From assembly GCA_026026165.1 (NCBI GenBank), contig JAPEUD010000048.1:62001-126000 (forward strand): 64,000 nt of DNA, written 5' to 3'. This DNA is from Sarea resinae. Taxonomy: Eukaryota. The translations under genes were made by a program, and so were the position numbers. Within the stretch, counting starts at the first letter, position 1, and each line of letters begins with the position of its first letter. Below are positions 21,227 through 55,874 of this stretch, one piece after another. Below the pieces are notes generated by a model. It saw nothing but the letters and a program-made list of their open reading frames with translations, was not told where the DNA came from and made no database searches.

Positions 21227-24200
21227 TCAGACACCACCACTGCTATCATCACTACCACCACTGCTCTCGCCACCATCACTGCGCTCGCCATTACTAGTAG
21301 TACTACTAGCACTGGCGTACTCGCGACCATTGCCTGTGCCGATACCGTTGCCGTTGCCGTTGCCGTTACCAGTGCCAGTACCAGTGCCAGTACCAGTGCC
21401 AGTGGCATTCCCATACCGATCCGCCCCCCCGCCCCCGAAAGCACCGGATTGGCTGCCGTTGTTGTATCGGGCCTCAGGGATGGGAGTCGCTGTAGCGGAA
21501 TTTGCTGGAGTGGTAGTGGGCGCAGTAGTGGTCGTGGTCGCCGTAGCGATGGGGGTATTCGTAGTATTATAGGCGGTAGTAGTAGCAGCGGTAGCGGTAG
21601 TGGCCGCAGGGGCAGCAGTTGCAGTAGCGGTAGTAGTCCTAGCCGTGAAAGCAGGAAGACGTGGTAGTGATAGTGATAGTATGGGTAGTGCTGGCAGTGC
21701 TGGTAGTGATAGTGATGGTAGTGGTGGTGGTGGAACAGGGGCGAAGAGGACCGGACGACGGTTTGATGGGCGTGGGAGTGGAGAGAGCGGCTGAGACGGG
21801 ATAGGGGATGGGGGCATGGGATGGTGCTGACGCTGGTGATCGTGCTGGCGATGCTGGTGCTGGTGGAGGGGCGAGTGCTGGTGCTGGGGGGAGTGGTTTT
21901 GATAAAGGGGCAAGTGATGTGCCTGGACTCGGGCTTGGTTGGTGGTGGTGGTGGTGGTGGCGGCGGGTCGGTAGGTCTGGTTCGGTGCCTGTTGAGTCTG
22001 CTGCCGAGCTCGGGCTTGTGCTTGTGCTTGAGCACGCGCCTGAGCCTGTGCCTGTGCCTGCGCCTGAGCCTGAGCCCGCGCCCGCGAGCCTTCAAGATCA
22101 ACCGCCGAAGTACGAGCATGAGCATGAGCAAGTGAGTTACGGGAACAGATACTAGGACTCTCGTCCAAGGGACGAGGACCAGGGCCGGGGACCCAAGACG
22201 GCGTATGTGAGCGTGAGCATGAGCGAGAGCGTGACTGCGATTGTAACAGTGATTGTGAGACCGACTGTGCTTGTGACTGTGACACTAGTGGTGGTGTAGT
22301 CTGCGGCTGCGGCGCTCGTAAAGGGGGCATCGGTGAAAGAGAAAGACGAGGAAGACGAGGAGAAGATTGCATCATGGCGTCATGCGCATCTATGCTCTTC
22401 TTCTCTTCCCGTCTATCCTGCGGCGGAATCGCGGATCCCCTTGGCAGCGGAAGCTGCTGCTGCTGGGGCCATATGTTCCGATTCACGCTGGTCCGAGGGG
22501 TGTCAGCTGGGCCCGAGAAGATGCCCGTGGCGTGTTGGGTCCTCGTCGTCGTCGTCGTCGTCGTCGTTGCAGAGAGCATCAGAGACTGCGGCGGTGCGAT
22601 ATCATTAGAGGTAGCCTTTGTGCGTGGGTAAGGGGACGGGGAGGATGCGTGATAGCGTTCGGCGGGCGTTTCCCATCCATCGGCCAATACGCCCTCGAAC
22701 GGGTCTTCGTCCTCTTCTCCTTCGTCTTCTTCCTCTTCCTCTTCGTCTTCTTCCTCGTCCTGGGCGATTTCCTCGTCGTCAGAGTCCTGCATGCGCGAGT
22801 CTTGTGGTTGCTGAAGTTGCTGTTCCGGAGTGTCGGGCATCGGCTGGTAAACCCAATCTGTCTGGTCGTCTTCTTCAACATATTCACTCATCCAGAGGTC
22901 TTCCTGTGCCCGAGGCAGTATCGCAGATAAGGGTTGGTTGACGTGTATTGTGTCCGAAGTTTTGTGCTGGTCGTTGATCGGAGCCTGTTGCGGTGTCTGG
23001 AGTGGCACGTCAGGTAGCGGGGCTTGATAGCCGCGAATGAGATGACCATCTTCGTCGATGTCTTCTTGGTCGGCCATCTCTTCGTCTTCCTGTGCCTGCG
23101 TAGGCGTGTGCACATCTTGCTGAACCCACAACTGCGTCTGTGTCTGCTTCTTCGCCGTCTGCTTCGGCTGCCTCTCTTCCTCGTCCTTCCCGCCCAGCCA
23201 TTCCATCCCCAGAATACCCCCCCAGCCATCCATCACCTCGCCTTCTTCCCACGCACAAGCCATCGAGTTCCCATAAACGACCGGCCAGCCCTCCCTCTCA
23301 AAAATCGGGATCTCCTTCTCAGCGTTCTGCATCCCTTGAGCCATACCCATGCCGGCCGCACTCGCGTCTTCAAGCTGTTTGGTCATCTCATCGAACCAGG
23401 TGTAAGAGGCGCTCTTATCCGCAACTGTCGTAGAAGTCGGAATCTCGATACCGGCTCTCACGCGAGCTATTGCAGGATTCTCGCCTGGGGTCGAAAGAAA
23501 CATGGGAGGAGAAGAAGAAGCAGAACGAGAGGGGCAGATGAGCGTTGGTGGGCCAGCAGGTATAGCATCAGCAGCATCAGCAGGATGGAGATCAGTACCG
23601 CAAATACCGGCCAGAGCGACGATCTTGGCTAGTTCCTCTCGTCGGGACTGGATGCTGAGGGCTAGATCGGCCCGCATGGCCTTGGCGTACTCGAGTTCGA
23701 TATCCGTCTCGATATCCCCGCTCTCCGTATCAGAGTCCGTGTCCAGCAGGTATAGGTCCATCTTCCGCTTCGTGCCACCCGTCTGCCTCGCCGTCTCTGT
23801 TCTCAAAGGTGTTCTGGCAGCTGGCACCTGGGGAATGTCGACGGAGGAAGGATCCACAAGTGCGAACGGGTCCCAATCCACCTGCTCCTCTTCCTCCTCC
23901 ATCTCCTCCCCCGTCTCCTCCCCCTCTGTCTCATCCTCCTTGTAGACATATTGCTCATCAGAGACTTCCTCTTCGTTTGCAGCAAACATATCACGCTGAC
24001 CAAAAAGGTTAAAGGCATTCCCCTGGGTGAGATTTGGGGATTCTTGCGAGGGCCAAGAAGCAGAGTTCTGGTTCATGAGCGTTGGCACGATCCGCAACCG
24101 CTTCTTCTTCCTCGAGGCACTATGCAGCCTAGCATCTCGCTGCCGCTTGGCCTTGAGCTTGGCGTTGGCCGTCTTGATCTCGGCGTGCATAAAAGTCGGA

Positions 24201-25489
24201 TAGAGCTCGGCCATGCGCTGCTCTTCACGTTCATGGTGTCGGCGGCGTCGGCAGCGGCGGTCGTAGGCTTCTTGGACCTGGCGAGCTTGCTCGTCTTGGT
24301 GAGCTTGTTGCGCTGTGCGCTTTTGATGGTCTTTCTGATCTTGATGGGCGCGACGGGCTTGATGAACTTGATGCTTGGGCTCGTGCTTGGATGCAATGGA
24401 TGGGGCCGGAACCGCGCTAGAGAGATGAGGATTGTGAGACGGAAGCGTGAGAGCACGGTCAGGAACAGGGCAGATTCCATCGTCGTTGTCCACGTCAACT
24501 TGGCGTTTCGCTGTCGACGACAAGGACGGAAGAAAGCCGGCGGTGCTGTATGCAGGTCCAGCCGGATTGATATTTTTCTTCTCCTCGGGTGCAGCCTTGG
24601 CTTCCAACTCCTCCTCCCGTGCTACTTTCTCCTTCTTGTAATGGCCCAGTACAAGCGCTCTCAGCTCGGATTCGGACAACACCGAAACGTCCCATTCTCT
24701 CTCCCCATCGGCAATCGTATCACGCAGCAGCTGTTCCTCCGTGATGGCACTCCCCCACTCGTTCTCGTCCTCCCATCCCATCGCCGTGGAGAATCCCTCC
24801 CGCTCAAAAACTTCATCCACGTGATTTTTTCCGGGCTCGTCTTCTCTCAGGCGATTGAACGGGGGCAGCCGCAGCCGGTACTGGATCCAGGCCGTTTCTC
24901 TCGGTTCCATCTCCAAGAAATCTCGGTCGAGGTGTAGGACTACGGCAGCGATATCGCCAAGTCCAGATAGGTCGAAAGGGGCCGCGAGGATGGAGTCGAC
25001 TCGAGCAAGGAATCGCTCTGTTGAGTTTTGTTTGTGATTTGGTGGCATCGAGGGACGGCAGTGTGGAGTTGGGATTCGTTGAGACGCTGTAGAAACAGTA
25101 GTAGTAGACCGTTGAGCCGCGGGACGACGCTGTGTAGCTGGGGCATTGACACTATGTGGAACTGAGACACGCTGCCGTGGGGCCAAGTTGGGCGGGACGC
25201 ACTGCTGTTGCGAGCTGTGGGCGGCTGGACCTCGTTGTTGTTGCTGTCGTGGATGAGGATTTGCTGGGCCAGAATTGAGATACGCCGCTGGCGGTATAAC
25301 AATTTCGCTGGAGACGCGTTGGACGGGGGCTTTGCGGTCTGGGGAGTCTGGCGACGCGTCAGTCTGTAATCTGGAGAGTAATTGAGACTTACTTTGAGCG
25401 CGAGCGGCTTGGATGATCATGTCACTCTGCCTGACTATCTCTGGGTCGATTGGAGGATCGCCCGAGCCCTGAGCCTTGCGGCGACCCAT
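21227..25489 (-). CDS. Hypothetical 1420-aa largely disordered protein, no recognised domain
   Basis: 4.26-kb stop-free frame. First ATG at 25489 has good context (A at -3, G at +4). One ordered-looking block (FLARVDSIL..WIQYRLRLPPF..LRALVLGHY), acidic tracts, and a QA/T/GT/GN-repeat C-terminus. Confidence 0.75.
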   Translation of the reverse strand: MGRRKAQGSGDPPIDPEIVRQSDMIIQAARAQSKSQLLSRLQTDASPDSPDRKAPVQRVSSEIVIPPAAYLNSGPANPHPRQQQQRGPAAHSSQQQCVPPNLAPRQRVSVPHSVNAPATQRRPAAQRSTTTVSTASQRIPTPHCRPSMPPNHKQNSTERFLARVDSILAAPFDLSGLGDIAAVVLHLDRDFLEMEPRETAWIQYRLRLPPFNRLREDEPGKNHVDEVFEREGFSTAMGWEDENEWGSAITEEQLLRDTIADGEREWDVSVLSESELRALVLGHYKKEKVAREEELEAKAAPEEKKNINPAGPAYSTAGFLPSLSSTAKRQVDVDNDDGICPVPDRALTLPSHNPHLSSAVPAPSIASKHEPKHQVHQARRAHQDQKDHQKRTAQQAHQDEQARQVQEAYDRRCRRRRHHEREEQRMAELYPTFMHAEIKTANAKLKAKRQRDARLHSASRKKKRLRIVPTLMNQNSASWPSQESPNLTQGNAFNLFGQRDMFAANEEEVSDEQYVYKEDETEGEETGEEMEEEEEQVDWDPFALVDPSSVDIPQVPAARTPLRTETARQTGGTKRKMDLYLLDTDSDTESGDIETDIELEYAKAMRADLALSIQSRREELAKIVALAGICGTDLHPADAADAIPAGPPTLICPSRSASSSPPMFLSTPGENPAIARVRAGIEIPTSTTVADKSASYTWFDEMTKQLEDASAAGMGMAQGMQNAEKEIPIFEREGWPVVYGNSMACAWEEGEVMDGWGGILGMEWLGGKDEEERQPKQTAKKQTQTQLWVQQDVHTPTQAQEDEEMADQEDIDEDGHLIRGYQAPLPDVPLQTPQQAPINDQHKTSDTIHVNQPLSAILPRAQEDLWMSEYVEEDDQTDWVYQPMPDTPEQQLQQPQDSRMQDSDDEEIAQDEEEDEEEEEEDEGEEDEDPFEGVLADGWETPAERYHASSPSPYPRTKATSNDIAPPQSLMLSATTTTTTTTRTQHATGIFSGPADTPRTSVNRNIWPQQQQLPLPRGSAIPPQDRREEKKSIDAHDAMMQSSPRLPRLSLSPMPPLRAPQPQTTPPLVSQSQAQSVSQSLLQSQSRSRSCSRSHTPSWVPGPGPRPLDESPSICSRNSLAHAHARTSAVDLEGSRARAQAQAQAQAQAQARAQAQAQARARQQTQQAPNQTYRPAATTTTTTNQARVQAHHLPLYQNHSPQHQHSPLHQHQHRQHDHQRQHHPMPPSPIPSQPLSPLPRPSNRRPVLFAPVPPPPLPSLSLPALPALPILSLSLPRLPAFTARTTTATATAAPAATTATAATTTAYNTTNTPIATATTTTTAPTTTPANSATATPIPEARYNNGSQSGAFGGGGADRYGNATGTGTGTGTGTGNGNGNGNGIGTGNGREYASASSTTSNGERSDGGESSGGSDDSSGGV

Positions 25490-25582
25490 GCTGTAAGCTT
25501 GGTTGGATTCAACGAGGATCCTCACCGGTGTAGTTGGCTTAAAAGATGTTCTCGTGATGTTTGGAGAAGAAGTGCGCTTTTG

Positions 25583-26587
25583 AGCTGCAGGACGGATGTG
25601 AAAGTGAGAGAAGTGAACTCATGAGGTCGAGTGCAGAGGGCAGTATTGATACCTTGGACATCGGGCGATAGTCACGTATAGATGAATGCCCAGATGACGG
25701 GACAGCAGGATGAAAGCACTGCGACATATCGGCCAACTGTAAATGGCCAGTGAATTACTATAGCAACGAGTGCAGGATCAAACGTTGAATGTCAGCTGGT
25801 GACCCCTGAGAGGTGAATAGTTGCTTCTTCGGTGAACTGCTAGAGGCATATCTGCGGAATATCGGCTGAAAAGACCTAAAAGTGAATATTTCAATGCACA
25901 AAAAGAGTGCAAGTGAACACTGCGAAAGGGCGGCAATCTAAAAAACAATAGTGAATGCCCATATTGTGCACAACAGCCGTTTTTGCGCGATATTGACTGA
26001 AGTTCTATAGATTAGGAATAAGCAGATATGAAAGAACTACGACAGCTGCATTAGACATTCAACGAGACTGTAACTCTCATCGACAATGCCCAGCAATAAG
26101 TGCGACAACTCGGTCCAGATAATCTCTTAAGTGAATGGCTGCACAGGAGCAAGGAATACACATAGAACAAGGACGGGATATCGGCTGGCGATATCGAAAT
26201 AGTGAATCTGCACATGAGGAGAATCTCAAAGAGAAGACACGATTCGCAACTGCGCAAGATCGCTTGAACTATTGTAGACAGTGAATCCAGCATCAGAGAT
26301 GAGGGGTAACAGGAACCACCACGGAACATCGATGGAATGATTTTCAACTCGTGAATGTATAAGACTGTGGGGAGATATGAGAGCAATGAACGCGGAATGT
26401 CGGCTCATCACGCTCTGATAGTGAATGCTCATCTTATCTCATCTCATCTCATCTCAATCCAAGAGCAGCAAGCTGGAAAGTCTGCGGAACATCGGTTCAG
26501 AACACTCTATCAGTGAATTGCCCACAAGGCAAGAAATCATCGAGGATCTAATGTGGGATATCGGCTAAAGAGAACCGGTAGGTGAAT
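25583..26587. repeat. Array of ~14 bipartite units TGCGGAAYATCGG-N17-GTGAAT, ~69-70-bp period, with non-repetitive spacers
   Basis: Box B starts at 25613, 25682, 25750, 25813, 25882, 25951, 26014, 26131, 26202, 26281, 26351, 26421, 26513 and 26582. Each is preceded, 16-18 nt upstream, by a variant of box A. Confidence 0.9.
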
Positions 26588-26947
26588 GGCTAGATCAGAT
26601 TAGGACATGGAACAAATCTAGGTGTCTTCACCACAGGAAGGACATCGAATCAGTCTCGACATACCACAGACTACACCAAACACCACCTAAAACAGCAGCA
26701 CGGATCATGAAAAGTAATACTCAGCAACTAGAACCCCATGTATTACCACCACCTATATATACACATAACGACCCCCGCTTCTGCCTTAGGACGACGCAAA
26801 AGCCCAATACCTAATGTATACCCCCACAGCAATGGTTCCATCATCCCTGATGTCCCGGATTTCCCTTCCCTTTTATCTCCAGAAAACACAAGCGCCTTTG
26901 CAATTTGGCCAGAGAGACGTAGTGTGCCGTACTCGCATCGGCAAACA

Positions 26948-26994
26948 CAACCGCAACCGCAATCGCAACCGCAATCGCAATCGCATTCGCAATC
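26948..26994. repeat. (CAAYCG)n hexamer microsatellite
   Basis: Read directly; about 8 units just 3' of the microprotein stop codon. Confidence 0.85.
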
Positions 26995-27111
26995 CTAGCC
27001 AAGGGCCACGGGAATCATAGAACGAACGACGTATCGCAGGACCTTTAAACGCCCCGAAGTTGAGCCATGGAGGCAGACCAACTCATGTGATTGGCACCGG
27101 AGACGGTGATG

Positions 27112-27619
27112 CTAGAAGGGAATCGCATTGCTGACTTGGCCTCCCACGTCTACAGGCGCGCCCAACATCCTGCCGGTTGCGAAAAAGGTCAGCGACTGGA
27201 GACTGTCGAAACGCTAGACAGCCATAGATGGCAGTGACATATAGGCGATCAAGGATGCCCCTGTTGGCCAGAGAAGGGTGGACGAGAAGGGCGAGCTTAC
27301 TTTTTTCCCGTGTCCGAGATACAACACCCACAAAAGAGAGAGGCCGGCCAGCAGACAATCTGCCGATTCACCCCTATCGTCAGCAAATGTTCGCCTCTAT
27401 TCCCCACGGTCTCACTCAAAGCAGCAATCAGGATCAACATCATCGACCCAGCCAAGCCCAACCGTGCACCATCCAAAGAGAAAGAGAGGGGAGAAGACCT
27501 ACAGCAGCAGCAACAGTAACAACGAAGCCAATAGTAGGCCCGACGACCTTACAATGGCACGGATTCTGATCGGTACCGCACTGGAAGCAAATGAGCGGGA
27601 AGGGAATCGGCAGACTCAT
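27112..27619 (-). CDS. 77-aa Cys-rich membrane microprotein (3 exons), absent from the ORF track
   Basis: Exons 27619-27503, 27359-27301 and 27169-27112. Introns GTAGGT..GCTGAC..CAG and GTAAGC..GCTGAC..CAG. Product MSLPIPFPLICFQCGTDQNPCHCKVVGPTIGFVVTVAAAIVCWPASLFCGCCISDTGKKMLGAPVDVGGQVSNAIPF*. Confidence 0.85.
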
Positions 27620-28411
27620 TTCGGCGGAGATATCTGAAATTGATCGTCACGTTGCCAGCAAGAAAGACGGAAACAATGGAATTGATAGGTAATCAGTAGA
27701 GAGATGAGGATCGGGAGAATAGGAGAAGGAGTTGGAGACGGGGGAGATACGATGCACAACACAGCCTCACGCGCAATGGGTGGTGGTGGAGTTAATCGAT
27801 CGGAAGTCGATCAGGCTTGTTTTGCTGAATTGGGATCGTCATTGGTTACATAAGTCGAGGTACTTCCAAGCTAGATCTCAGCCTCGGATGACGTAAGGTG
27901 CCGCGCTCTCGTCCTGTCCCTACTGCGGACCGCTTGAAACCCGGTTGGGGACTAGCTCCGCCTCCGCTAGAGATGGATAAGGGGAAACGAGATCCAAGAA
28001 TAAAGATATCCCTTGCTTTCCAAAAGGCTTAAGTCAACCACCATCGTCTTAATTACCCGTGGTGACTAGTCGATATTTCCATTCCACCATCTATTGATCC
28101 GATAAATAACCCAAATACTCTTACATCCAGATCTTTCCACGTCAAGACATATGCGAGAGAGGTATTTATACAACAGGTAAGGAGTCAGGCAGATAGAGAC
28201 AGATAGATGGACGGACATCGAAACAGCCGGTGAGGCTGGCAAGGAAGAAAGCATACGAAGACGCAAGCAAACAGCTAGCAGTTGGCAGTCAGCCCCAATA
28301 CACAGCTCCCGTTTGATCCAATAGAGCGGTACTGTATTCTCCTCCTATCATCCCCTTGTTCTGATTCCCCTCTTCTTCTCTTCCCATCTCGAGACCATAG
28401 TTGTCGCATGA

Positions 28412-31400
28412 TCATCCAACGTCCACCCGTTTCGCTTCCCTTTGCGGCGTCTCAGCGCCACCTAAGCCCGTCTCATCAATCGCCCTCTTTACCCCTGCCA
28501 CAGTGTTTGATACAGAAGACGAGATAGGAGCCGGAGAGGCGGAGGCCGAAGGGGCCGCTGCAGGAGCAGGCGTGTGAGTGGGGGGCGGCGGAGGAACAAG
28601 CTGCGGATGCTGCTGCTTCTCTTGACTTGCCGCGTCCACGGCTTGAGACGGGGTGGTGTTGCCGTTAGTCGTAGCCGTTGAAGAGGTTTGGGCGACTGCA
28701 ATGGCGGGGGACGTCGACCTATAAGTAGACGGTGGTCCCAGACCGGAAGCCGCGTTGGTCTCTATGGCTGAGTGGGAGTTGGGCGGAGGCGTGGACATGG
28801 CGGTCTGCGCCGTGGTCGTTGCCGGAGACGCCGCTGCCTGTGGTGGCACAGAACCACCATCAGCCGACCGCGGAGGCGCAGGGCTGCCTTCACTACCATG
28901 TCGCGTTTGTATTTGAGGTTGGCCCGACTGAGAAGGCGGCGCTCTTGGGGATTGAGATTGAGACTGGGAGGGTGGGGCTTGGGTATGCTGTTGTTGGGCA
29001 GCCCCAGAGGATGTGCGTCGGCCAATCTGCTGGAGCATCTGAAAGAGCTGCGCTTGTGCAGCGTGCTGAGTAGATGGAGGAGCTCTAATGGGTGTCTGCT
29101 GTTGCTGTGATGTCGGCTGTGCATGTTGTTGTTGTTGTTGTTGCTGTTGCTGTTGCTGTTGCTGCTGCGGTGGAGGAGTAGGTCGAGGGGGTGCTTGGTG
29201 ATGTTGTGGTTGCTGTGGTAGCGGCGGAGGAAGTGGAGGCGGAGGTCGATGTTGTTGATGTTGTTGCTGGGGGTGCGGATGCGGATGCGGATGCTGCTGT
29301 GGCGGACGTGCCGCAGCTAGACCCTCGGCCTTTTTTCCCATAGTCCCAAGCATACCAGCTAGTGCCTTCATGATAGCAGCCTCCTGGGGGTCTTCTTTGC
29401 CCGGAACGCTAGACTTTTCTTGCAAACCCAAGGTGCGATTGATGGCCGAGGTGACGATGATTTCGCCACGAACCTTGTCGTTCATCTGACTGATCAGAGC
29501 GGTTTTGAATTTGCCTACAGCTTGCAAGACATCTTCGTTCACCTTCGGACGATGTTGAGTGCTTGGCGGAGACATGTGCTGGGAAGGGCTCGGTCGATGC
29601 TGTTGGGTTGGAGGTCGGGGGGAGGCAGTGTGAGGAGGAGAGTATACGGGTGCTTGAGGCCTTCCTGTATTTGCGTAATAGCCGTTAGATCCATTATGCG
29701 GTGACGGGTGGGGTGGTGAGTGTTGTGCGTTAGCTTGTGGCTGCGGCTGCGGTTGCGGCTGCGATTGCATTTGGGGTTGTGGTTGTGGGTTCGGTGATTG
29801 TTGTGGTTGCTGAGGCTGTTGAGGTTGCTGCTGTTGAGGAGGTCGCTGTGCATATGGTGACGCATAAGGTGAAGTGTAAGTGCTCTGATTGTTGAGCTGA
29901 GGATTTGCCGGTGGCAAGGGAGCTGCAGGCAGGACCGCGGCTGGAGTCGTCATAGGGAGCTGAGGCGCTGCAGCTGGCATCATGCCAGGAGGGAGACCTT
30001 GTGGTGGGTTCATATTCCCATACATTGGGAGATGGCCCATAGGATGGTGCATTGGAGGCTGCATCATCCCAGGTTGCTGATGAAGATAATGATGCGGTGG
30101 CGGCGGAGGCGGCGACATCTTCCTTTTCTTCTCCTTTTCAATCGACACACCCGGAACAAGGCCCCACAGCCAACCCTTGCCATCTCGCTCGACCTTTTCG
30201 AATGCATGATGTTGTGAGAGATTATGCCGAACGCTGCTCTGCCAACCTGTGGTTTGGACGCGCAGCTTGAAGAAAGGATATCTCCTCTCAATAGCCCGGT
30301 AGATTTGCGGTAGTGACATTGGTCCAACCTTGGAATTCGAGAGAGCTTCGTGGATCAAGATAACATAGGATGCCTGAGGCTTCGCCAATTCCTCAGCGGT
30401 CAATTTCGACTCGTCGAAAACGGGCGAAGGTGAGCGAGGCGGTTTTGGCGGTTTGGGAGGTTTCTTCTCTTTTGGAGGTGCGCTCTCCCTCGGTTCTTCC
30501 ATAGGTGGTTGATCGAAGGTTCTCTGTTCCTCCATGGGCGGCATCTGCTCCAATCCTTTTCTTTTGGTGTATTTCCTTTTCTCCGGTTTGGGGGCGGTGG
30601 GCGATTCGGCAACAAGGCCGGCTTCGGAATCCTTTCGGGGACGGCCAGTCTTGCCTCTCGCAGCAGTGGGAGACTCCGGTTCTTCTTTCTGCACGGTCTT
30701 CTGAGCTGCTCGCTTTGCTTCTCTTTCTCGCTGCTTTTGTTCCCTCTTGGACATGATTCCATTCTTAGGTGGCCGGCCGGGTCCTTTTCGCTTTACTGGC
30801 TGCGTCTCTGGCAAAGGCTGAGAATTCTCTTCACCTTCTTCTTCCTCGCCTTGGTCTGCTTCGTCATCATCCTCGCCCTCTTCGCCCTCTCCCTCTTCCG
30901 GCTCCTCATCCTCTTCGGCTTTCGCTGGGGTTTCTTCATTACTGCGTTCCACATCACTTCCATCCTCGCTACTGTAGTCTGAAGCGATGTTCTCCCCACG
31001 CGCGTTTTCGAACTCAAAGCTCATTTTGCCTCCATGAGCGGGATCAGGCCCCTCTGCATCTTCAGCTCCAGTCTCGCCTAATGCGACATCCGGTAGCACG
31101 AATCGTACACCTACGCCGCCAATTTGGATGTAGCTGCCGCTTCGCAGGGGCTGGGTTTCTCCGGGGGCGTGCCATTCATCATCGACAAAAGCGCCGTTCT
31201 TGCCTCTGATCTCGACCTCGAAAAGATGCTTGTCAAAGTTGAAGGCGATCTTGACGTGTTTGCGAGAGATGCCCTTGTGTCCGGCTGCGCTTCCGGCCGC
31301 ATTCGCAGGAGGGTGGATGGGAATTAGAGGGCACTCATCCGGAGATGGCAGGAGGGAAAGAGGATCGACGGGGTGTGCACCGGCTGTGCTATCTGATATT

Positions 31401-32578
31401 GACTGCATGGCCAGAGACTGATAGTCCGTCTCTACGTTTGGAGCGACGGCCGAGTTCTTCCGCGATAGGTATTGAGAGGATGAGCTTGTAGATTTAGACT
31501 TCTTGCTCTTTCTCTTTCTTTTCGTTTCTTTGTCTTGCATATCCATTCCCATGATTCCGCCGCTCTCGCTGACGACGCTTCCCGGCACGCGACTCTCTTC
31601 ACGTTTAACCCTGACGGGGGTCTGAGGAATTTCACCAACGCTCGAGCTTTGCCTTTTGACCTTGGTGTCGGGCTGTTGGCTTGTCTCCAGCTCTTTCTGG
31701 AACGCCAGCCTCGCAGCCCTGATGTCGCGACCAAGCTCAACCGAATAGGTATTCATGTAGAATTGTCCATCGTCGAATTCAAGCTTCGCAAATGCCTGAA
31801 TACGCGGGGCCTCTGACTCGTGCACTGTTGGAGCGGGCTGGAGGAAAGGGGGGTCGATGCGCATGGCGTCGCTGGGGGTGACTGGCACAGAAGGTGTACC
31901 CTCAAGTCCCCTGGAATGAGAGCCATTTTCGACGTAATCCTGAGGCTGGAAAGAGAAATCGGGAGTTGGTACGCGATAATCGACGGGTTGCTGGTTTGCG
32001 GCTACGATGCTATCGAGCGCATTACGGTGTTCAACCAGGGACGCATTGATGCCATCCGTTATCAGCTCGGGAGCATTGAGTAGTTGGCCGTCGTCATCCT
32101 CAGTTTTCAGCACCGGAAGCTGCGCTGAATCCTTGATCTCATCCGAAAACTCTGCCAGTGATGGATCTGCCTGAGGATTCTGGTGTTCGGGTTGCGAGGT
32201 GACGTTGGCGTCAATGCCTCCACCCTCGGCGTGGTTCCCTAAATCCGGTGCAGCTATCGGATCATCGAGCTTCATCTCGGCAAGCGCATCTACGTCCGCA
32301 ACAGGCTGGTGATGAGCTTCACGTAGATTCTCCAAGTCGTGCGCGTCATCAGTCGAGCCGCCGGCAGCATGCACGCCGACGTTGTCTCGGTCGGTGGTGA
32401 TCGCATCCATTGCTATGACGGGGCCAGCATGGTCTTCGCCTTCGCGTTGGGATGATACTTCCGTCGGCCGGTGCTCGTCGCCCATTTGACCAGTAGCGGG
32501 ATGGCGAAGCGCGGATGCTGCATGCCCAACTGGTGATGATCTCTGGTCGAGGACTTCTTGAGCTGCACCAGGATGCAT
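28412..32578 (-). CDS. FHL1: FHA plus forkhead transcription factor, Fhl1-like (intronless; start approximate)
   Basis: FHA: AFAKLEFDDG..VELGRD..GISRKHVKIAFNF..GKNGAFVD. Forkhead: KPQASYVILIHEAL..LPQIYRAIERRYPFF..GWQSSVRHNLS. AT-hook-like GPGRPPK and GRPRK; P/Q-rich tail. Confidence 0.88.
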   Translation of the reverse strand: MHPGAAQEVLDQRSSPVGHAASALRHPATGQMGDEHRPTEVSSQREGEDHAGPVIAMDAITTDRDNVGVHAAGGSTDDAHDLENLREAHHQPVADVDALAEMKLDDPIAAPDLGNHAEGGGIDANVTSQPEHQNPQADPSLAEFSDEIKDSAQLPVLKTEDDDGQLLNAPELITDGINASLVEHRNALDSIVAANQQPVDYRVPTPDFSFQPQDYVENGSHSRGLEGTPSVPVTPSDAMRIDPPFLQPAPTVHESEAPRIQAFAKLEFDDGQFYMNTYSVELGRDIRAARLAFQKELETSQQPDTKVKRQSSSVGEIPQTPVRVKREESRVPGSVVSESGGIMGMDMQDKETKRKRKSKKSKSTSSSSQYLSRKNSAVAPNVETDYQSLAMQSISDSTAGAHPVDPLSLLPSPDECPLIPIHPPANAAGSAAGHKGISRKHVKIAFNFDKHLFEVEIRGKNGAFVDDEWHAPGETQPLRSGSYIQIGGVGVRFVLPDVALGETGAEDAEGPDPAHGGKMSFEFENARGENIASDYSSEDGSDVERSNEETPAKAEEDEEPEEGEGEEGEDDDEADQGEEEEGEENSQPLPETQPVKRKGPGRPPKNGIMSKREQKQREREAKRAAQKTVQKEEPESPTAARGKTGRPRKDSEAGLVAESPTAPKPEKRKYTKRKGLEQMPPMEEQRTFDQPPMEEPRESAPPKEKKPPKPPKPPRSPSPVFDESKLTAEELAKPQASYVILIHEALSNSKVGPMSLPQIYRAIERRYPFFKLRVQTTGWQSSVRHNLSQHHAFEKVERDGKGWLWGLVPGVSIEKEKKRKMSPPPPPPHHYLHQQPGMMQPPMHHPMGHLPMYGNMNPPQGLPPGMMPAAAPQLPMTTPAAVLPAAPLPPANPQLNNQSTYTSPYASPYAQRPPQQQQPQQPQQPQQSPNPQPQPQMQSQPQPQPQPQANAQHSPPHPSPHNGSNGYYANTGRPQAPVYSPPHTASPRPPTQQHRPSPSQHMSPPSTQHRPKVNEDVLQAVGKFKTALISQMNDKVRGEIIVTSAINRTLGLQEKSSVPGKEDPQEAAIMKALAGMLGTMGKKAEGLAAARPPQQHPHPHPHPQQQHQQHRPPPPLPPPLPQQPQHHQAPPRPTPPPQQQQQQQQQQQQQQHAQPTSQQQQTPIRAPPSTQHAAQAQLFQMLQQIGRRTSSGAAQQQHTQAPPSQSQSQSPRAPPSQSGQPQIQTRHGSEGSPAPPRSADGGSVPPQAAASPATTTAQTAMSTPPPNSHSAIETNAASGLGPPSTYRSTSPAIAVAQTSSTATTNGNTTPSQAVDAASQEKQQHPQLVPPPPPTHTPAPAAAPSASASPAPISSSVSNTVAGVKRAIDETGLGGAETPQREAKRVDVG

Positions 32579-32921
32579 CCAGCGGCAAAGCCGATTATCA
32601 GAGGTCGTGAAGTCGAGTCGGCGTGTCGTGCTGGGCGGTGAGGTGAGATGAAGGTGAGGGAGGGCCGCCGGAATCATTCACTTTGGGCCTGGATGGGCCA
32701 CCGAACGAAATCTTGGCATCGACCAGACTGTCCGGGTCCGGGTACCATCCGCAAATGCCGAATGAGGTCAAGCGCCAACTCTCCTCAAGCCACCTTTTAC
32801 GGAGTACGAAAGCGCTGCTACTCGATGCCAATATCATTGACGGATCACATACACATACACATACATATGCATACCTTCGTAGCCGTAGAGCCACGCCCAG
32901 AGAGGAGAAGAAGAGAAGAGA

Positions 32922-36371: not shown

Positions 36372-39234
36372 TCAAAAGTTCGACAGCACAGAGCGGCCAT
36401 CGATAAGCTTCGCAAGCACACCACTCGCCTCGTTGAGTAGTCCACTTAGAGCCGGCGCTGATGTCTCGCTCCGTACCCACTGTAGTAGCGAGTCAATGTA
36501 AGTCTGATCAGAAACATGACCAATATCTTTCCATGATCCTGTGTCAAAAGCTGTGAGGTAGCGCTGCGTATTTTGTTCGTAGTCGTTAAGAGGTGGCCCG
36601 AGGGTGCTTAAGGCAAGATTGCTTGACGAAGGTTGCATGGCAGAGGAACTAAAATTGTAGCTCCAACAGACAAGGGCTGCAAGATAAAGAATCCACTGCT
36701 CGTGAAGCAGACCTGTCCGGTGCGGACGCCGTGTGAATGCGATATTGAGTATATGCACAGCACAACTGACCGCTCTTTTGGCCGTATCGCCATCGACCCA
36801 GACACGAAGACGGCGCTTAGCGTGCTCGAATTCAGATTCCAGGGAAAGCTTGCGACCGAGAATCCAGCTTTCCCCGCTGACGGCCAGAAGATCCCGGATG
36901 GGGACATAGCGGACGAGAAGGAAAGCGTCGTAACTGAGAAGGGCGCTTGCGGAGCTTAAAGGGGCTGACTGCAGAGTCTCGCCAAAACCAAGCAGATCTT
37001 CTTGCTCGGAACAAGTCATACCACTGCAAGCAAAGTATGACAGCACAGTAAGGGATTGAAAGTCGTCTAGGGAAAGGTGGCGGTTCAAAGCAGAGATAGC
37101 AGCGAAGGGCAGGTTATTACTCTGCTCCGCCGACGCTATAAGACTCCACTCGAAGTATGAACAGTTCCATAATATGTCGGAACACGGCAAGGGAAGATGA
37201 ATACTCTCGCTGGGCGTTGATGCATTTTCAGCATCCAATTCAAAAAGAGCTTCGTGCTGGGTCTTGAGGATGAATGCTGAAATGAAGACTCTTCGCCTAG
37301 TCTCGAGCTCCAGCCAGATGCTCCACGCAGCTTGCATACCGTTCTCGTCGGCAAAGGTCGTTGAGAGGGCTCGAAACGGTGCCAAAGGATCGGCCAGGAG
37401 CCTTTGATTGTCTCGAACTAGCTGAACAATATTAAGCATGGTAATTCACCCTCACTTCGGCGCACTTACGCTAAGGTAAAGCCGGCTATATGCTTGAGAA
37501 ACAGTCAGGACTGGTCTTCGAGATCGGTACTTTGCAAACATCTCCAGCAGAACAATAGCTTGCATGTCGGAAGTCAAGAGGCTGGTATCAAAGTCATGGT
37601 AATTCTGAAAAGTTAGCTCATACTGTGTCTCTTTTGATTTAATTAGACGGGCGTTACTAACAGTGTCAAGGTGTTTCATAGTCTGGCGATGGAGCGTAAT
37701 AGAATCGGACTTTGCATCTATATAATCCGAGTATTGGGCGCCAATTGATATGACAGAGGCTGCAAGAAGAGGAGATACGCTTGGAGAGCAGAAAGTCGGC
37801 CGGTGGATAATTGGGAAAATTGGATGGAAATTCCGCCAATAACAATCAAGATACTCTTCAGCTCTCGTCCTCCTGGACCCTGGCTCACAAGTGCCCAGAG
37901 TAATGCCAATCGATGCCAGTGACGCCTCTAAAACAGTGTACCACTGAAGGCCGTCGAGTGTGGGGACTGATACTGATGTGGGAGGTAGCAATAAGTGTGG
38001 CGCATGTCCTGCCACGTGGATATCCTCGGAACCCGGCACATTTGTCGTGAAGCTTAATTCCTCTATCCATGGATTGTATCCGGCGTGGACTTGAGCAGGA
38101 GAGACGAAGTTATTAGACAGAGGAGAAGTCAAGGAATGTGGCTGATACTCGATATCTCCAGCCGATGCAGTGGAAGATCGCCTGCTGAAATCCGGCGGCA
38201 GCCAGTAGGGACCTCTTCCAACTTCTACGTCTTCATATGGAGACAAGGAAAAATTCAAAGTGCTGGCCCAAGGTATGGGACTTGGTGCATGAGCAATGTT
38301 GGGATTATCGGAGGGCCCCGAGACTTGAGGGGTCAGTTGCATCGTTCGAGAAACGGAAGGTGAACGACTGCCATTCGGACTGAGGATTATAGTCCGAGGA
38401 GCAGAAGTGGTAGCCAATTCGGAGGCCATATGAGGACCGCATATTGCTTCTCTCGGGCGAACATCTGCTGACGCAGAAGTAGAGTTTCTCCTTGTGGACC
38501 GTTTACTTCGGGGGGTTCTCTTTTGCGAAATATCGGTAGTTTGCGAGGCGACACTGCGATCATCAGACTCCTTCTCGTATTCTCAACGGTTCGAGAGACT
38601 GACTGTTTTTCCATATGTCTGCGTAGAAGGTCTTTGCGGAAGAAGCGCTTGGGGCAGCCAGGAATTTCACATTTCAGGGCTTCTTCCTGATGGTTGAGTT
38701 GATGTCTCCTGAAAGGACCGAGTCAGTATCCATTGATAGATGGGATACGGAGTAGAATTGCTGACCTTAGATGCTCTGCTCGGGATAAAACCTCCATTCT
38801 GTTTAGTGTCTGAGCAACGTTGGAGCCAAAGAATTACATACCTTTGTACAACCTGGATAGTCGCATCGATGCACAAGTTTACCTTTCTTTGCTTTGCTAG
38901 GACGTCGAGTCTTAGACGTGTATTCAGTCATCACTGCATCGTCTGACGATGATGAAGTCCCCTGAAGCCTATCCATGTTTCGAAAGGGCTCAACTCTGCC
39001 TCCAGTCGTATCAGATCCGCTAGATGTGATAGATCGTAGCGCTGTGCGAAACCTCGTGATGTTGTGGTGTATCGGTTTGGATATGCGATTTGACCGGCGT
39101 CGCGCTAGATTGCTCTTCCTGACGCTGGCTGCCGCTGATCCGGCAAGGTTCCAAGTATGCCTGATCTCCGCTGTCAAGGGATTTCCTGCGCTCTGAATCT
39201 TGTCTGACCATGGAAGGGTAGCGTGAGGTCCCAT
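36372..39234 (-). CDS. C2H2 zinc-finger transcription factor with fungal-specific TF domain (start uncertain; ATG 38931 also possible)
   Basis: Spliced fingers HRCDYPGCTK|VLSRAEHLR|RHQLNH and CEIPGCPKRFFRKDLLRRHMEKH. Fungal TF domain YWRNFHPIFPIIHRPTF; W..LETRRR..LPLPCSDILW. Confidence 0.85.
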
Positions 39235-40094
39235 TACAGATATACCTTACGATGAGGATTGGTTTGCGATCCGTGGTCAAGGAAAGACGGCGACATCGAA
39301 GTCTCGTGGTGAGGTGTGAAGTGTCTTGAGCCAGAGGCCCAGGACCGATGAAGTTCAATCCATTTAAAACGCTATGAGAATTGAGAGAAGAAGATCTTCT
39401 TTGCCACAATTGGACAGTCCGACTCGCTCGGAAGTTTCAGCAACGAGGGTATGTTCTTTCGAGGCAGTGAAGGGACCTCCCAAAAGTATCTCTGATTACC
39501 TTGGGTACCTTAGGTAGAGACTCGGCGTCTTAGCTATGCGGAGAGTCGGCCGTAGTCATCACCATCGGCACGGTTCTTTCTATCTTGGGTATGCTTTGCG
39601 GGGTGAAGAGGAGCAGAAGGCAACAACGGCCGCGACTGGAGGTGTGCGGCTGATAGGGAACTAAGGAAATGGAATGACGATAGGGACACCTGCCAGGGCT
39701 GAGGGCCACGGCTAGCAATGGATGGTACCTGATGCATAAGGTGCTCAGACAGGGACATGTCTGGCGACCAAGGAACAAGCAGCATCTTGGGATCTGATGG
39801 TCGCGGGAGGGATCCCATCCGCAAACGGGCCAGATGGGACAAGATTGGAAGTGGTGCTCGATAGATGAACGATGCAGCCATGTCCGTTGGATCTGTGGCC
39901 AGTGTATCTAGACATAGTACGTGCTTAGCTCTGTTGCCAGCGCCCGCATCTGCGAGGCATGGGCGTCGTCGCTCGTCGCTCGTCGCTCGACGACTCAACG
40001 AAAGCGCCCGGCGGGGGCCCCATGAACCCGCCCGAAGGCTTAGCTTGCCGCGCATGCTGCAGATTGGACTACGAGTGTTTTTTGTGGAGTCGGC

Positions 40095-52718: not shown

Positions 52719-54014
52719 ATGGAAGCGCTAGTCGCGCGCCACCGCAAAGAACAACGCGACCTGCAATCGCGCATCACGCAGAAGAAGAAACAGGCGACCA
52801 AGAAGTCGCGCAAGGGCGTCAATGACGAGTGTGCGGCGCTGGAGCGCGAGCTGAGAGATCGGCAGCGGGGGGAGATGGATGAGATTTCTTCCGGTGGTGG
52901 AGCCGGCGATGGTCAGGGAGAGGGAGATGGAGAGCGGGAGGGGGGTAGAGGGGCGGGGGATGGTGGTTCCGAGGAGGGGGATCTAGAGCGGCGGTTGGGG
53001 AGTTTAGAGATGGATCGCGAAGGCCGCGTGGGTGGGGGAGAGGGGGGACAGGACGGGGACGACGCGTTACATGCGCGATCACGGCTCCAACCACAATCAA
53101 AACCACAATCAAAACCACAATCACATACCGCACAGACGACGAACGACGACCCATCCACCGCGACCTCATCCCCACATCCGTACTCCCCCACCGCCCCTCA
53201 CCCCAAGAAGCCCAACCGAGCGAAAGCGCGGCTTGCGCGGCGCGCCGCGGCCCTGGAGGCACTCTCGACGGCCGCGGCGGACGAAGCGGCACAGACGCCG
53301 GACCGGCGCGCGCTGGAAGCGGCGACGATGCGCGCGGCGCTGCAGAGGCGCGGGTTGAGTGAGGTGGCGGTGCGGCCGGATGGGCATTGCTTGTATAGTG
53401 CGTTTGCGATGGGGCTGGAGAGGATGGGCCGGGGGGTTTGCGTGGACAAAGACGGTGGAGAGGGGAGGGGGGGAGGGGGGATAGGAGGAGAAGACGAACA
53501 AGAAGAAGAAGAAGACGGAAAACGAGCCCCATCCACCACATCCACCACACCGACACCGACGCCGGGCTACCGGCTCGTCCGCCGATCAGCCGCCCGCTAC
53601 ATCCTGCGTCACCCGGACGACTTCCTGCCCTTTCTCCTCGCGGCCGAGGACGACGACGACGAGAAAGACGCCACGGACTCGGGCGGCGCCGTCGACGTCG
53701 AGGCGTACGCGCGCCGCGTGGGCGAGACGGCCACGTGGGGCGGACAGGTCGAGCTGGTGGCGCTGGCGCGGGCGTACGGCGTGCGCGTCTGCGTCATTAC
53801 TGCCCCTAGCAATGGTGGTGGGGGGGAGGGCCGGGTGGAGGTTTTTGAGCCTGAGGTCGAGTCTGAGTCTGGTGATGGGTCTGGTGGTGGTGGTGGTAAT
53901 GGTGGTGAGAAGAAGAAGACGACGACGGGCAGGGAGACGGCAGAGCTGTGGTTGGCGTATTACCGGCACCATTTCGGGCTGGGCGAACATTATAATTTCC
54001 TGGTCTTGAGTTAG
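52719..54014 (+). CDS. OTU2: OTU-domain deubiquitinase, Otu2/OTUD6B-like
   Basis: MEALVARHRKEQRDLQSRITQKKK N-terminus, KPNRAKARLARR, catalytic PDGHCLYSA, WGGQVELVALA and HFGLGEHYN. Confidence 0.9.
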   Translation: MEALVARHRKEQRDLQSRITQKKKQATKKSRKGVNDECAALERELRDRQRGEMDEISSGGGAGDGQGEGDGEREGGRGAGDGGSEEGDLERRLGSLEMDREGRVGGGEGGQDGDDALHARSRLQPQSKPQSKPQSHTAQTTNDDPSTATSSPHPYSPTAPHPKKPNRAKARLARRAAALEALSTAAADEAAQTPDRRALEAATMRAALQRRGLSEVAVRPDGHCLYSAFAMGLERMGRGVCVDKDGGEGRGGGGIGGEDEQEEEEDGKRAPSTTSTTPTPTPGYRLVRRSAARYILRHPDDFLPFLLAAEDDDDEKDATDSGGAVDVEAYARRVGETATWGGQVELVALARAYGVRVCVITAPSNGGGGEGRVEVFEPEVESESGDGSGGGGGNGGEKKKTTTGRETAELWLAYYRHHFGLGEHYNFLVLS

Positions 54015-54019
54015 ATAGA

Positions 54020-55400
54020 AGGCAGGAAGGAGTAGAAAGGAAGGAAGTGGTAGAAAAAGAAAGGAGAGGAGAGGAAAGGAAAGGAAAGGAAAGGAAAGGA
54101 AAGGAAAGGAAAGGAGAGAAGAGGGCCTAGAAACATTAGGTCAACTAGTCTGTGAGTCTATTTCATAGATATAGATCTAGAGCAAGAGAGGGATATAGAG
54201 GATATAGAGAGAAAGAGAAGGATCTATAGAGTACACAGTGTATACACGTAGAACATTGTAGAGGTTTACTCTTTCTATCTTTCTTCCTATAGAAAGAAAG
54301 AAGAAAAGCCACTGTATAGAAGAAGGCTAAATTACTACTACTTTTCTCTCTGTCCTCTCTTTATAAGTCTTTACTCTATCTTCACTCTTTATATTACAAA
54401 GTACTTAGACAGAGAGAATAATATAACATAGAATCACATAGCTTAGCAGCGTACGCAACTTCTTAGCATAAGCTATAAAGAGTCTTAGAGCCTTAAAGCG
54501 CCTACCTAAACTAAAGTTTTCTGTACTTACCTTACTTAAGAGCAGGTATACAAGAGAGTACCTAAGTATTTTAGTAAAGTAAGAGGCTACTACTACTGTT
54601 AAGTAAGACTCTATATAACACTACTACCTACTTAAAAGACCTAGAGAAAATAGGAGCTAGAAAGAATAGGTAGAGAAAAGAGTGAGTTTATGTTGTTTAA
54701 AAAAAAGATTTAAAGAGAGATACTTACTAGCTACTCTTTACTTAGTTATTACTATCTAGATGTCTTTACTTACTTTACTACTAGTGTGACCTATTGAAAG
54801 CACTTTAGCTCTCTACTCTTTAGCTCTTTACTCTCTACTCTCTCTTTCTCTTTCACTATACTAAGAGACTACTAGAAAAAGAAAAAAATAAATTCAGGTA
54901 GATAAGGTAGCTACCTAGGTAGCTAGTTTAACTATAACCTTACTTGCCTACCTCTTTACTTACCTAACTACCTAGGTACCTATCTACCTACTCTAATATA
55001 CAGATATATATATAATTACTTAGATAGATAGATAGATAGAGAAGAGGAAACAAGTAAGAGAAGTACTATATAAGCCTAATCATATACACACACTCTCTCT
55101 CTTCTCTCTCCTTATTACCTACAGCCCTAGTCACATATACTACATATAGGCACACCTACACCTGCAGCTAAGCTACAGCTACAGCTACAGCTACAGCTAC
55201 AGCTACTAGCCCTACCTACCTATAAAGTAGTTATAGACTCTACATCTGCATCTAATGTCTTAAGAAACATAGCCTCTATCTTAAAACACATGACACGACC
55301 TTACCTAACGTAACCTAATATAACATACTAGCTACAGTGAGTAAGGCGAGTAAGGCGAGTAAGCAAGTAAGTAAGCTCAAAAGTAGGTCATAGTTTCATA
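54020..55400. other. AT-rich RIP-like/SSR island
   Basis: No ORF; TA-rich and CA/TG-poor by eye. (GAAAG)n ~54073-54114, (TAGA)n ~55021-55040 and (AGCTAC)n ~55171-55205. Confidence 0.8.
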
Positions 55401-55874
55401 CATGACATGGACACGATCGACAAGTAACATAGCCCAACATACATGACATAGACGAAAGAAAGAGCCATCTACTCGGATAGCAGATGATAAGATGATAAGA
55501 TGATAAGACGATGAACCAAATGAGACCCGAGCCAGAAACAGGGGGCCCGCGACCAAAGAACCAAAAGATCGCCCCCCCTTGAGAGAAAGAGTCCCGATAG
55601 AAGAATCCTCCAGTTGGCAAAGAAAGAAACGGAAGAGGAAGAGGAAGAGGGAAATTCGAGACGGGAGGGAGGGAGAGGGGGAATATCTAGCGTCGCTGAC
55701 GAGGATAACTGTGAACCCAGGCCGGGACAAGGATTCATTCTTCCTGTGTCGTCCGGCCCTCTCACTTTCGTCTCTCGCCTCTCTCGTCACTCTCGTCACA
55801 CGTCGACATCAACATGACCTTTGGCGTCATTTATGATCTTCCTCATTTTATGCTCTCCCTCGGCTTACGCTCCC

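Follow-up and report, generated by a model that had tools for sequence, protein, structure and literature searches.

What purpose could be served by a kilobase of DNA in which a two-part motif returns, at a regular period and always in the same direction, just ahead of the start of a fungal gene? The question is raised by a stretch of 64,000 nucleotides from Sarea resinae (assembly GCA_026026165.1, contig JAPEUD010000048.1, positions 62,001 to 126,000 of the forward strand), which we call the window and number from its first letter. A preliminary description of the window had drawn attention to an array of units, each with a 13-nt box (box A) followed at a set distance by a 6-nt box (box B). 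It had offered three candidate roles for them: a cluster of composite protein-binding sites, a precursor cut into unit-length RNAs with guide-like spacers, or iterated recombination or transposase-binding signals. We analyzed the array, its units and its surroundings computationally. On the reading we favor, to which we assign roughly an even chance on the strength of the DNA, the array would consist of clustered copies of a single composite protein-binding site and would regulate the adjoining gene.

Layout of the array and its departure from chance

The array spans 25583–26622 on the + strand (1040 bp) and consists of 14 units, all of them on that strand. The modal unit is 69 bp long and is made up of box A (13 nt), a gap of 17 nt, box B (6 nt) and a linker of about 33 nt. 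The consensus of box A is TGCGGAAYATCGG and that of the unit TGCGGAAYATCGG(CTGA)-N17-(A)GTGAAT(G), as column information content showed that the boxes reach slightly further than their core letters, to CGG-CTGA in box A and A-GTGAAT-G in box B. The gap between the boxes measures 17 nt in 12 of the 14 units (16 nt in unit 5, 18 nt in unit 11). Box B reads GTGAAT in 11 units, with GTGAAC, ATGAAT and AGGAAT seen once each, and a GAAT core is common to both boxes. The + strand of the array is purine-rich (A 0.33, G 0.256, T 0.215, C 0.199). All of the layout given in the preliminary description was reproduced, including the number of units, the box A variants, the positions of box B and the intervals between them (Table 1), the gap lengths, the presence of CGG-N5-CGG in four units and the single orientation (14/14 on the + strand).

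The motif is concentrated in the array well beyond chance. CGG-N17-GTGAAT has seven matches in the 64-kb window against 0.53 expected, and TCGG-N16-18-GTGAAT likewise has seven against a mean of 0.38 in shuffled sequence, a count of seven being reached in 0 of 100 shuffles; for both patterns every match lies within the array. The significance against shuffled DNA that the preliminary description had called for is thus confirmed. Within the 1040-bp array all 11 occurrences of the hexamer GTGAAT are on the + strand and none is on the − strand; the remaining 63 kb has 14, both strands taken together. To avoid circularity, each unit was scored with matrices made from the other 13. In this leave-one-out scoring 11 of the 14 units scored above the best site elsewhere (62.8 kb, both strands), whilst units 1, 2 and 7 scored below it and would not be called alone.

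Outside the array there are two box-A-like 13-mers, at 38524 and 19356, both inside genes. The one at 38524–38536 (TGCGAAATATCGG, one mismatch) was rejected as a promoter site, as it sits in the open frame of a gene with C2H2 fingers and a Fungal_trans domain and is probably a chance match; that at 19356 lies inside a glycosyltransferase open reading frame (ORF) and was also treated as chance. A scan of metagenomes for two adjacent TCGG-N17-GTGAAT units returned at least 117 loci, all of which were re-scored with the matrices, and no homologous array was among them. Multi-match loci L097, L090 and L116 proved to be unrelated perfect satellites, and locus L076 a single chance site. Among the contigs of the source sequencing run no other aligns to the array at 80% identity or above. 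A second run contributed a 151-nt contig of depth 2 that covers 26098–26248 with three differences, one of which (26130 A>G) lies just outside box B, and the contigs of two further runs touch low-complexity stretches only.

Regular as the boxes are, Tandem Repeats Finder did not report the array, and in autocorrelation the peak at lag 69, although the top lag, is modest (0.308 against a mean of 0.261, standard deviation 0.016). The array is therefore a very decayed repeat. The longest of the box B intervals depart from the period for reasons that can be partly traced. That of 92 bp is due to a (CTCAT)5.8 microsatellite in the linker of unit 12. That of 117 bp had been thought to hide a decayed unit and possibly does hold one, unit 7b, with GACAATGCCCAG at 26082; the relic was recognized by eye and is under the 12-bit threshold of the matrix scan.

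We also concur that the array is non-coding. All six frames across it are interrupted and the longest stop-to-stop frame has 117 aa. Only seven of the 13 box B intervals are multiples of 3, and the frames of the boxes vary between units, which is not the behavior of a protein-coding repeat.

Differential conservation and common descent of the units

Conservation is distributed very unevenly within the unit. Between units, mean pairwise identity reaches 0.91 for box B and 0.60 for box A, but the spacer core (gap positions 5–15) has 0.26, a value equal to the shuffled null (0.262). The spacers do not align with one another as the boxes do, and the similar decay at all unit positions that a neutral minisatellite would present was not observed. 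The contention that this is no ordinary minisatellite therefore holds.

The linkers, in contrast to the spacer core, retain a weak colinear similarity, with a mean local-alignment score well above that of shuffles (z 4.48; top-10 pairs, p 0.007). Matches stand at equivalent offsets: units 1 and 3, for example, share CGAGTGCAG, and units 2 and 3 have GCAGGATGAAA/GCAGGATCAAA. Because of this colinear similarity, taken with lag 69 as the top lag and a modal unit of 69 bp, the units descend by tandem (head-to-tail) duplication from one segment of about 69 bp, and the copies have since drifted to near-saturation everywhere but in the boxes. Spacers and linkers had both been described as unique; this is correct for the spacer core, which is at null identity, and needs correcting for the linkers.

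Repeat-induced point mutation (RIP) was rejected as the cause of the divergence between units, since the array carries no RIP signature (TA/AT 0.55, (CA+TG)/(AC+GT) 1.57). The departures of box A from its consensus comprise 24 transitions and 19 transversions.

Every column of a duplicated unit has the same genealogy, so uniform neutral decay cannot yield the contrast seen between boxes and gap, and this argues for purifying selection on both boxes. The distance between the boxes was considered separately. Linkers have their modal length of 33 nt in only 4 of 13 cases, compared with the 17-nt gap of 12 units out of 14, and length changes per nucleotide are 3.9-fold rarer in the gap than in the linker (likelihood-ratio p 0.051). 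This suggests that the spacing between box A and box B is constrained, with borderline significance. Selection had earlier been proposed for boxes and spacing together; the contrast in the boxes does imply constraint, and the case for the spacing is less secure.

A putative regulatory cluster and its alternatives

The array lies within a 2.9-kb gap that separates two minus-strand genes. It extends from −94 to about −1133 relative to the start codon of the downstream gene (ATG at 25489), and it is 1.8 kb from the stop of the upstream neighbor, a gene with FHA and Forkhead domains. Read on the gene strand, the 132 nt that precede the downstream ATG contain no further ATG and the nearest 130 nt are pyrimidine-rich, whereas the array holds 20 ATGs; the start codon itself has a good context (A at −3, G at +4). 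Promoters of filamentous fungi have pyrimidine-rich tracts near their start sites, and initiation is by scanning. Given these features and the distribution of ATGs, transcription more likely starts near the proximal edge of the array, which would place the array upstream of the start rather than in a scanned leader.

We propose that, at some distant time, tandem duplication of a segment of about 69 bp upstream of the 1420-aa minus-strand gene gave rise to some 15 copies. Ordinary substitutions and small indels would then have randomized the copies outside the composite site, whilst purifying selection would have kept the two boxes with their flanking letters, and their internal spacing, in the 11 units that are clearly recognizable. 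The composite site may be bound by one protein with a long footprint or by two cooperating proteins, one per box, and the cluster would act as upstream activating or otherwise regulatory DNA for the gene whose ATG is 94 bp from its proximal edge. Of the three roles first suggested, a binding-site cluster appears to be the best fit, given that the 5′ end of a gene lies directly beside the array.

As to the binding factor, it had been pointed out that CGG-N5-CGG is the direct-repeat geometry bound by Zn2Cys6 dimers of fungi. The Zn2Cys6 factor CLR-1, for example, has the motif CGGN5CGGNCCG, which contains this arrangement (PMC4620465). In the array the geometry is perfect in 4/14 units, with the second CGG present in 10/14 and the first in 5/14, and the column information of box A favors GCG..A..TCGG over paired CGG triplets. 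The array differs further from the CLR-1 motif in that 10 of the 14 units lack one triplet, that CTGA is conserved along with GCG..A..TCGG, that a second box stands 17 nt off and that there is no third element CCG. The argument from geometry is thus weaker than had been stated, and a Zn2Cys6 protein is at present a weak candidate. The GAAT core also recalls the sites of TEA/ATTS proteins (CATTCY, of the AbaA/Tec1 type), a passing resemblance, as box B does not fit that consensus.

Several points weigh against a regulatory cluster. Elsewhere in the window (62.8 kb) no site scores as high as the 11 good units, and the two box-A-like 13-mers found there are within genes. The uniform orientation of the units is no evidence for any function, because it arises automatically from tandem duplication. 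The constraint on the spacing is of borderline significance only. Finally, no homologue of the downstream gene was detected, and its biology therefore lends no support.

The closest kinds of known system are promoter tandem-repeat enhancers and upstream regions with repeated sites, and we place the array with these rather than with CRISPR-like (clustered regularly interspaced short palindromic repeats) or RNA arrays. Our comparisons draw on excerpts of the papers cited. In Aspergillus fumigatus, the cyp51A alleles TR34 and TR46 have duplicated promoter units of 34 and 46 bp, each with a site for SrbA (SRE) and for AtrR (ATRE), and the copy number of the repeats alters transcription (PMC9239056). 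There, as here, a short promoter segment has been duplicated head-to-tail and each copy holds a two-site composite, which in the present case is putative. The cyp51A repeats differ in being two or three recent, near-identical copies of 34–46 bp with known factors, whereas the array has about 14–15 ancient copies of about 69 bp that are random outside the boxes. URS2 of the yeast HO promoter contains nine SBF sites (PMC7641740) and resembles the array in that one short site recurs many times across about 1 kb ahead of a single gene, with unrelated sequence in between. Its sites are single short boxes at irregular spacing and are not known to stem from a regular tandem duplication, whereas the site of the array is bipartite, its gap is fixed at 17 nt and a 69-bp period persists in residual form. 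RTS1 of Schizosaccharomyces pombe has, within about 450 bp, four repeats of a motif to which the Myb-domain protein Rtf1 binds, with a purine-rich region adjacent (PMC10473836). The likeness lies in repeated motifs of one orientation beside a purine-rich stretch, which in RTS1 are bound by one sequence-specific protein; RTS1, however, belongs to the mating-type locus and has Myb-type sites, whereas no Myb-type site was recognized in the array, whose location suggests a promoter. The resemblance to CRISPR, a regular alternation of conserved elements and unrelated sequence, is superficial. The array does not show the contiguous, near-identical repeats and foreign spacers of CRISPR: it comes from a eukaryote, its repeat is bipartite and 60–91% identical between units, and the variable parts come from one duplicated unit and not from acquired DNA, with no match to them within the window.

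Might the boxes be all that survives of a repeat without function? In that case a minisatellite would have decayed around boxes that were kept non-selectively, either as microhomology for slippage and unequal exchange or through short-tract gene conversion. Such a relic would agree with the descent of the units from one repeat, with the decay of end units 1 and 2 and internal unit 7, as in ageing arrays, and with the failure of Tandem Repeats Finder to detect anything; any function is, moreover, putative. Yet neutral decay hits all columns alike, which is at odds with boxes at 0.91 and 0.60 and a spacer core at the null level in the very same units. There is no known mutational process that would leave a contiguous 6-mer and 13-mer untouched, and short-tract conversion would have homogenized the adjacent bases too. 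We regard a functionless relic as improbable. That the array is what remains of a mobile element, or a series of iterated sites for a recombinase or transposase, is a good deal harder to credit, and we hold it to be very improbable. Some DNA transposons do carry iterated subterminal binding motifs, and the AT-rich relics of RIP type in other parts of the window reveal that the genome has harbored repeats in the past. Around the array, however, neither terminal inverted repeats nor flanking duplications were found, and no transposase or recombinase domain was present among the 21 scanned ORFs (the two flanking genes and 19 of the 48 listed ORFs of at least 150 aa). The array shows no trace of RIP, and the absence of a second source-run contig at 80% or above likewise fails to match the subterminal repeats of a transposon. 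The recombination or transposase signals put forward at the outset are accordingly not borne out.

Protein binding could also serve an end other than promoter function. The array might be a dedicated platform, its roughly 14 oriented sites being recognized by a sequence-specific protein whose bipartite footprint covers 36 bp. Rather than as a promoter element, it would work as a polar barrier or insulator on DNA or, once transcribed, as a long non-coding RNA (lncRNA) scaffold on which many molecules of one protein would assemble; the variable 13-nt gap cores and the linkers would be free to drift. We think this unlikely, and in the literature searched by related terms no such oriented platform was found described for filamentous fungi. 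A polar replication-fork barrier, a transcriptional roadblock or an insulator between co-directional genes, on the model of RTS1, would require for its polarity the single orientation that 14/14 units display, in keeping with the repeated, oriented motifs of RTS1. It would also suit the purine-rich + strand and the location of the array, which has the 3′ end of the FHA-forkhead gene on one side and, on the other, the start of the next gene, encoded on the same strand. A single orientation is nevertheless the default for tandem duplication, the array stands hard against the downstream gene start and 1.8 kb from the upstream gene stop, and no Myb-type site was recognized, which makes a non-promoter array of this type quite improbable. 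At the level of RNA, the boxes might be sites for RNA-binding proteins in an lncRNA or long leader (a scaffold or "sponge", for which the A-repeat of Xist offers a comparison), or the array might yield unit-length RNAs with guide-like parts, as had been proposed. The restriction of the boxes to one strand, the excess of A over T and of G over C on the + strand across 25500–28000, and a TATATATA tract at about 26750, just past the distal end, are compatible with transcription of this kind. Against it, Rfam gave 0 matches at E ≤ 1 over 24500–28500, the tRNA search found 0 tRNAs, RNAalifold found 0 consensus pairs in the 14-unit alignment, and the folding of the units (14 units, two phases, both strands) did not differ from that of shuffles (mean z −0.02 to −0.40). 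The family match or conserved structure of a structured small-RNA array was thus not seen, although these null results exclude structured or known RNA forms only and not an unstructured, protein-binding lncRNA. A C/D small nucleolar RNA reading, with GUGAAU as the C box and the CUGA after box A as the D box, was rejected, as box B is consistently not a C box (it is never RUGAUGA), and both terminal stems and a folding signal are lacking. Spacers and linkers, for which matches to other sequence had been envisaged, gave no exact match above the null elsewhere within the window, and the 20 gene-strand ATGs speak against a scanned leader. The unit-length guide RNAs of the preliminary description are not upheld, and we give an RNA-level element as a whole a slim chance.

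If the array is indeed a regulatory cluster, it would amount to a natural experiment in which time has erased a duplicated promoter segment save for what selection needs. It would define, at base resolution, a 36-bp composite site (two boxes and a fixed 17-nt gap) for a fungal regulator, and would be an old, 14-copy counterpart to the recent promoter duplications of two or three copies in azole-resistant fungi. The motif could be used directly as bait for identification of the factor and for finding other targets in the full genome. Practical importance is limited, as the host is a little-studied, resin-dwelling ascomycete represented by a metagenome-assembled genome (MAG) and the presumed target gene is an orphan.

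Adjoining genes and other features of the window

Table 1. Positions in the window of the array units, the adjoining genes and associated features. Scores are leave-one-out values; intervals run from one box B to the next.
Feature	Position	Strand	Box B start	Interval (bp)	Score (bits)	Remarks
Downstream gene	21227..25489	−				1420-codon open frame, ATG at 25489; low-complexity, disordered-looking product
Probable 5′ leader and core-promoter zone of downstream gene	25490..25582	−				No upstream ATG, A at −3, G at +4, pyrimidine-rich sense strand; putative role
Unit 1	25583..25618	+	25613	69	8.2	Degenerate, AGCTGCAGGACGG-N17-GTGAAC; overlaps pyrimidine-rich stretch upstream of gene ATG; score under window background
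Unit 2	25652..25687	+	25682	68		Degenerate, box B ATGAAT
Unit 3	25720..25755	+	25750	63	26.3	
Unit 4	25783..25818	+	25813	69	18.3	
Unit 5	25853..25887	+	25882	69	31.2	Consensus box A, 16-nt gap
Unit 6	25921..25956	+	25951	63	19.3	
Unit 7	25984..26019	+	26014	117	8.7	Degenerate, box B AGGAAT
Possible relic unit 7b	26052..26087	+				Box B remnant GACAAT, then GCCCAG as in units 2 and 6; box A unrecognizable; linker shortened; by eye
Unit 8	26101..26136	+	26131	71	18.6	
Unit 9	26172..26207	+	26202	79	22.9	
Unit 10	26251..26286	+	26281	70	21.1	
Unit 11	26320..26356	+	26351	70	15.0	18-nt gap
Unit 12	26391..26426	+	26421	92	30.0	
(CTCAT)5.8 microsatellite	26428..26456	+				Within unit 12 linker; Tandem Repeats Finder
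Unit 13	26483..26518	+	26513	69	28.8	Consensus box A
Unit 14	26552..26587	+	26582		27.6	
Box-A-like remnant	26636..26653	+				GGAAGGACATCGAATCAG, without box B; possible decayed terminal half-unit
Upstream neighbor gene	28412..32677	−				1421 aa; FHA (residues 467–520) and Forkhead (766–843), flanked by long Q/P-rich tracts

The protein of the downstream gene belongs to no Pfam family. A word-indexed search with residues 1–500 gave no homologue among 8000 scored candidates (781–2485 aa), a full HMMER search of 1.84 billion representatives with residues 1–700 gave 0 matches, and residues 180–420 had no usable Atlas match. The 1420-codon ORF appears to be a lineage-restricted gene. GTAAGT at about 25391 makes a short intron likely there, soon after the start of the gene. 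The exact sequences of both flanking ORFs were not found in the protein collection, probably owing to introns in the real gene models.

The DNA of the window is fungal, with Fungal_trans, trehalase, kinase and OTU domains encoded in it, and the trehalase ORF is 100% identical to a protein of a Sarea resinae MAG, the next best match being 86% (Xylona heveae). A multi-exon transcription-factor gene at 36372–39246 (−) combines C2H2-type finger motifs (HRCDYPGCTK..., KCEIPGCPKRF...H) with a Fungal_trans domain. It is the only Fungal_trans gene in the 21 scanned ORFs, and nothing connects it with the array. In the literature under the species name, judged from titles and the beginnings of abstracts, there was no genome or transcriptome study, and a search with 11-mers of box A gave only coincidental primer matches among the matches listed.

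Some minor observations concern the array and its margins. Extra box-B-like hexamers on the same strand occur at 25832 (GTGAAC), 25913 (GTGAAC), 26152 (AGGAAT) and 26311 (AGGAAC), in the linkers of units 4, 5, 8 and 10, and may be secondary half-sites or chance. The box-A-like remnant beyond unit 14 has an 89% match, GGACGGACATCGAAACAG, at 28209–28226, near the 3′ end of the FHA-forkhead gene and with no box B after it. At 26941–26994 there is a (CAACCG/CAATCG)n hexanucleotide microsatellite of 7.8 copies; it is the sole place of alignment for many unrelated contigs from all four sequencing runs, and so represents a common low-complexity word rather than a shared locus. Two tracts further away, at 1–1500 and 54001–55500, are AT-rich (GC 0.32–0.35) with strong RIP-type indices in 1-kb windows (TA/AT 2.1–2.7, (CA+TG)/(AC+GT) 0.32–0.50), and are probably RIP-mutated repeat relics.

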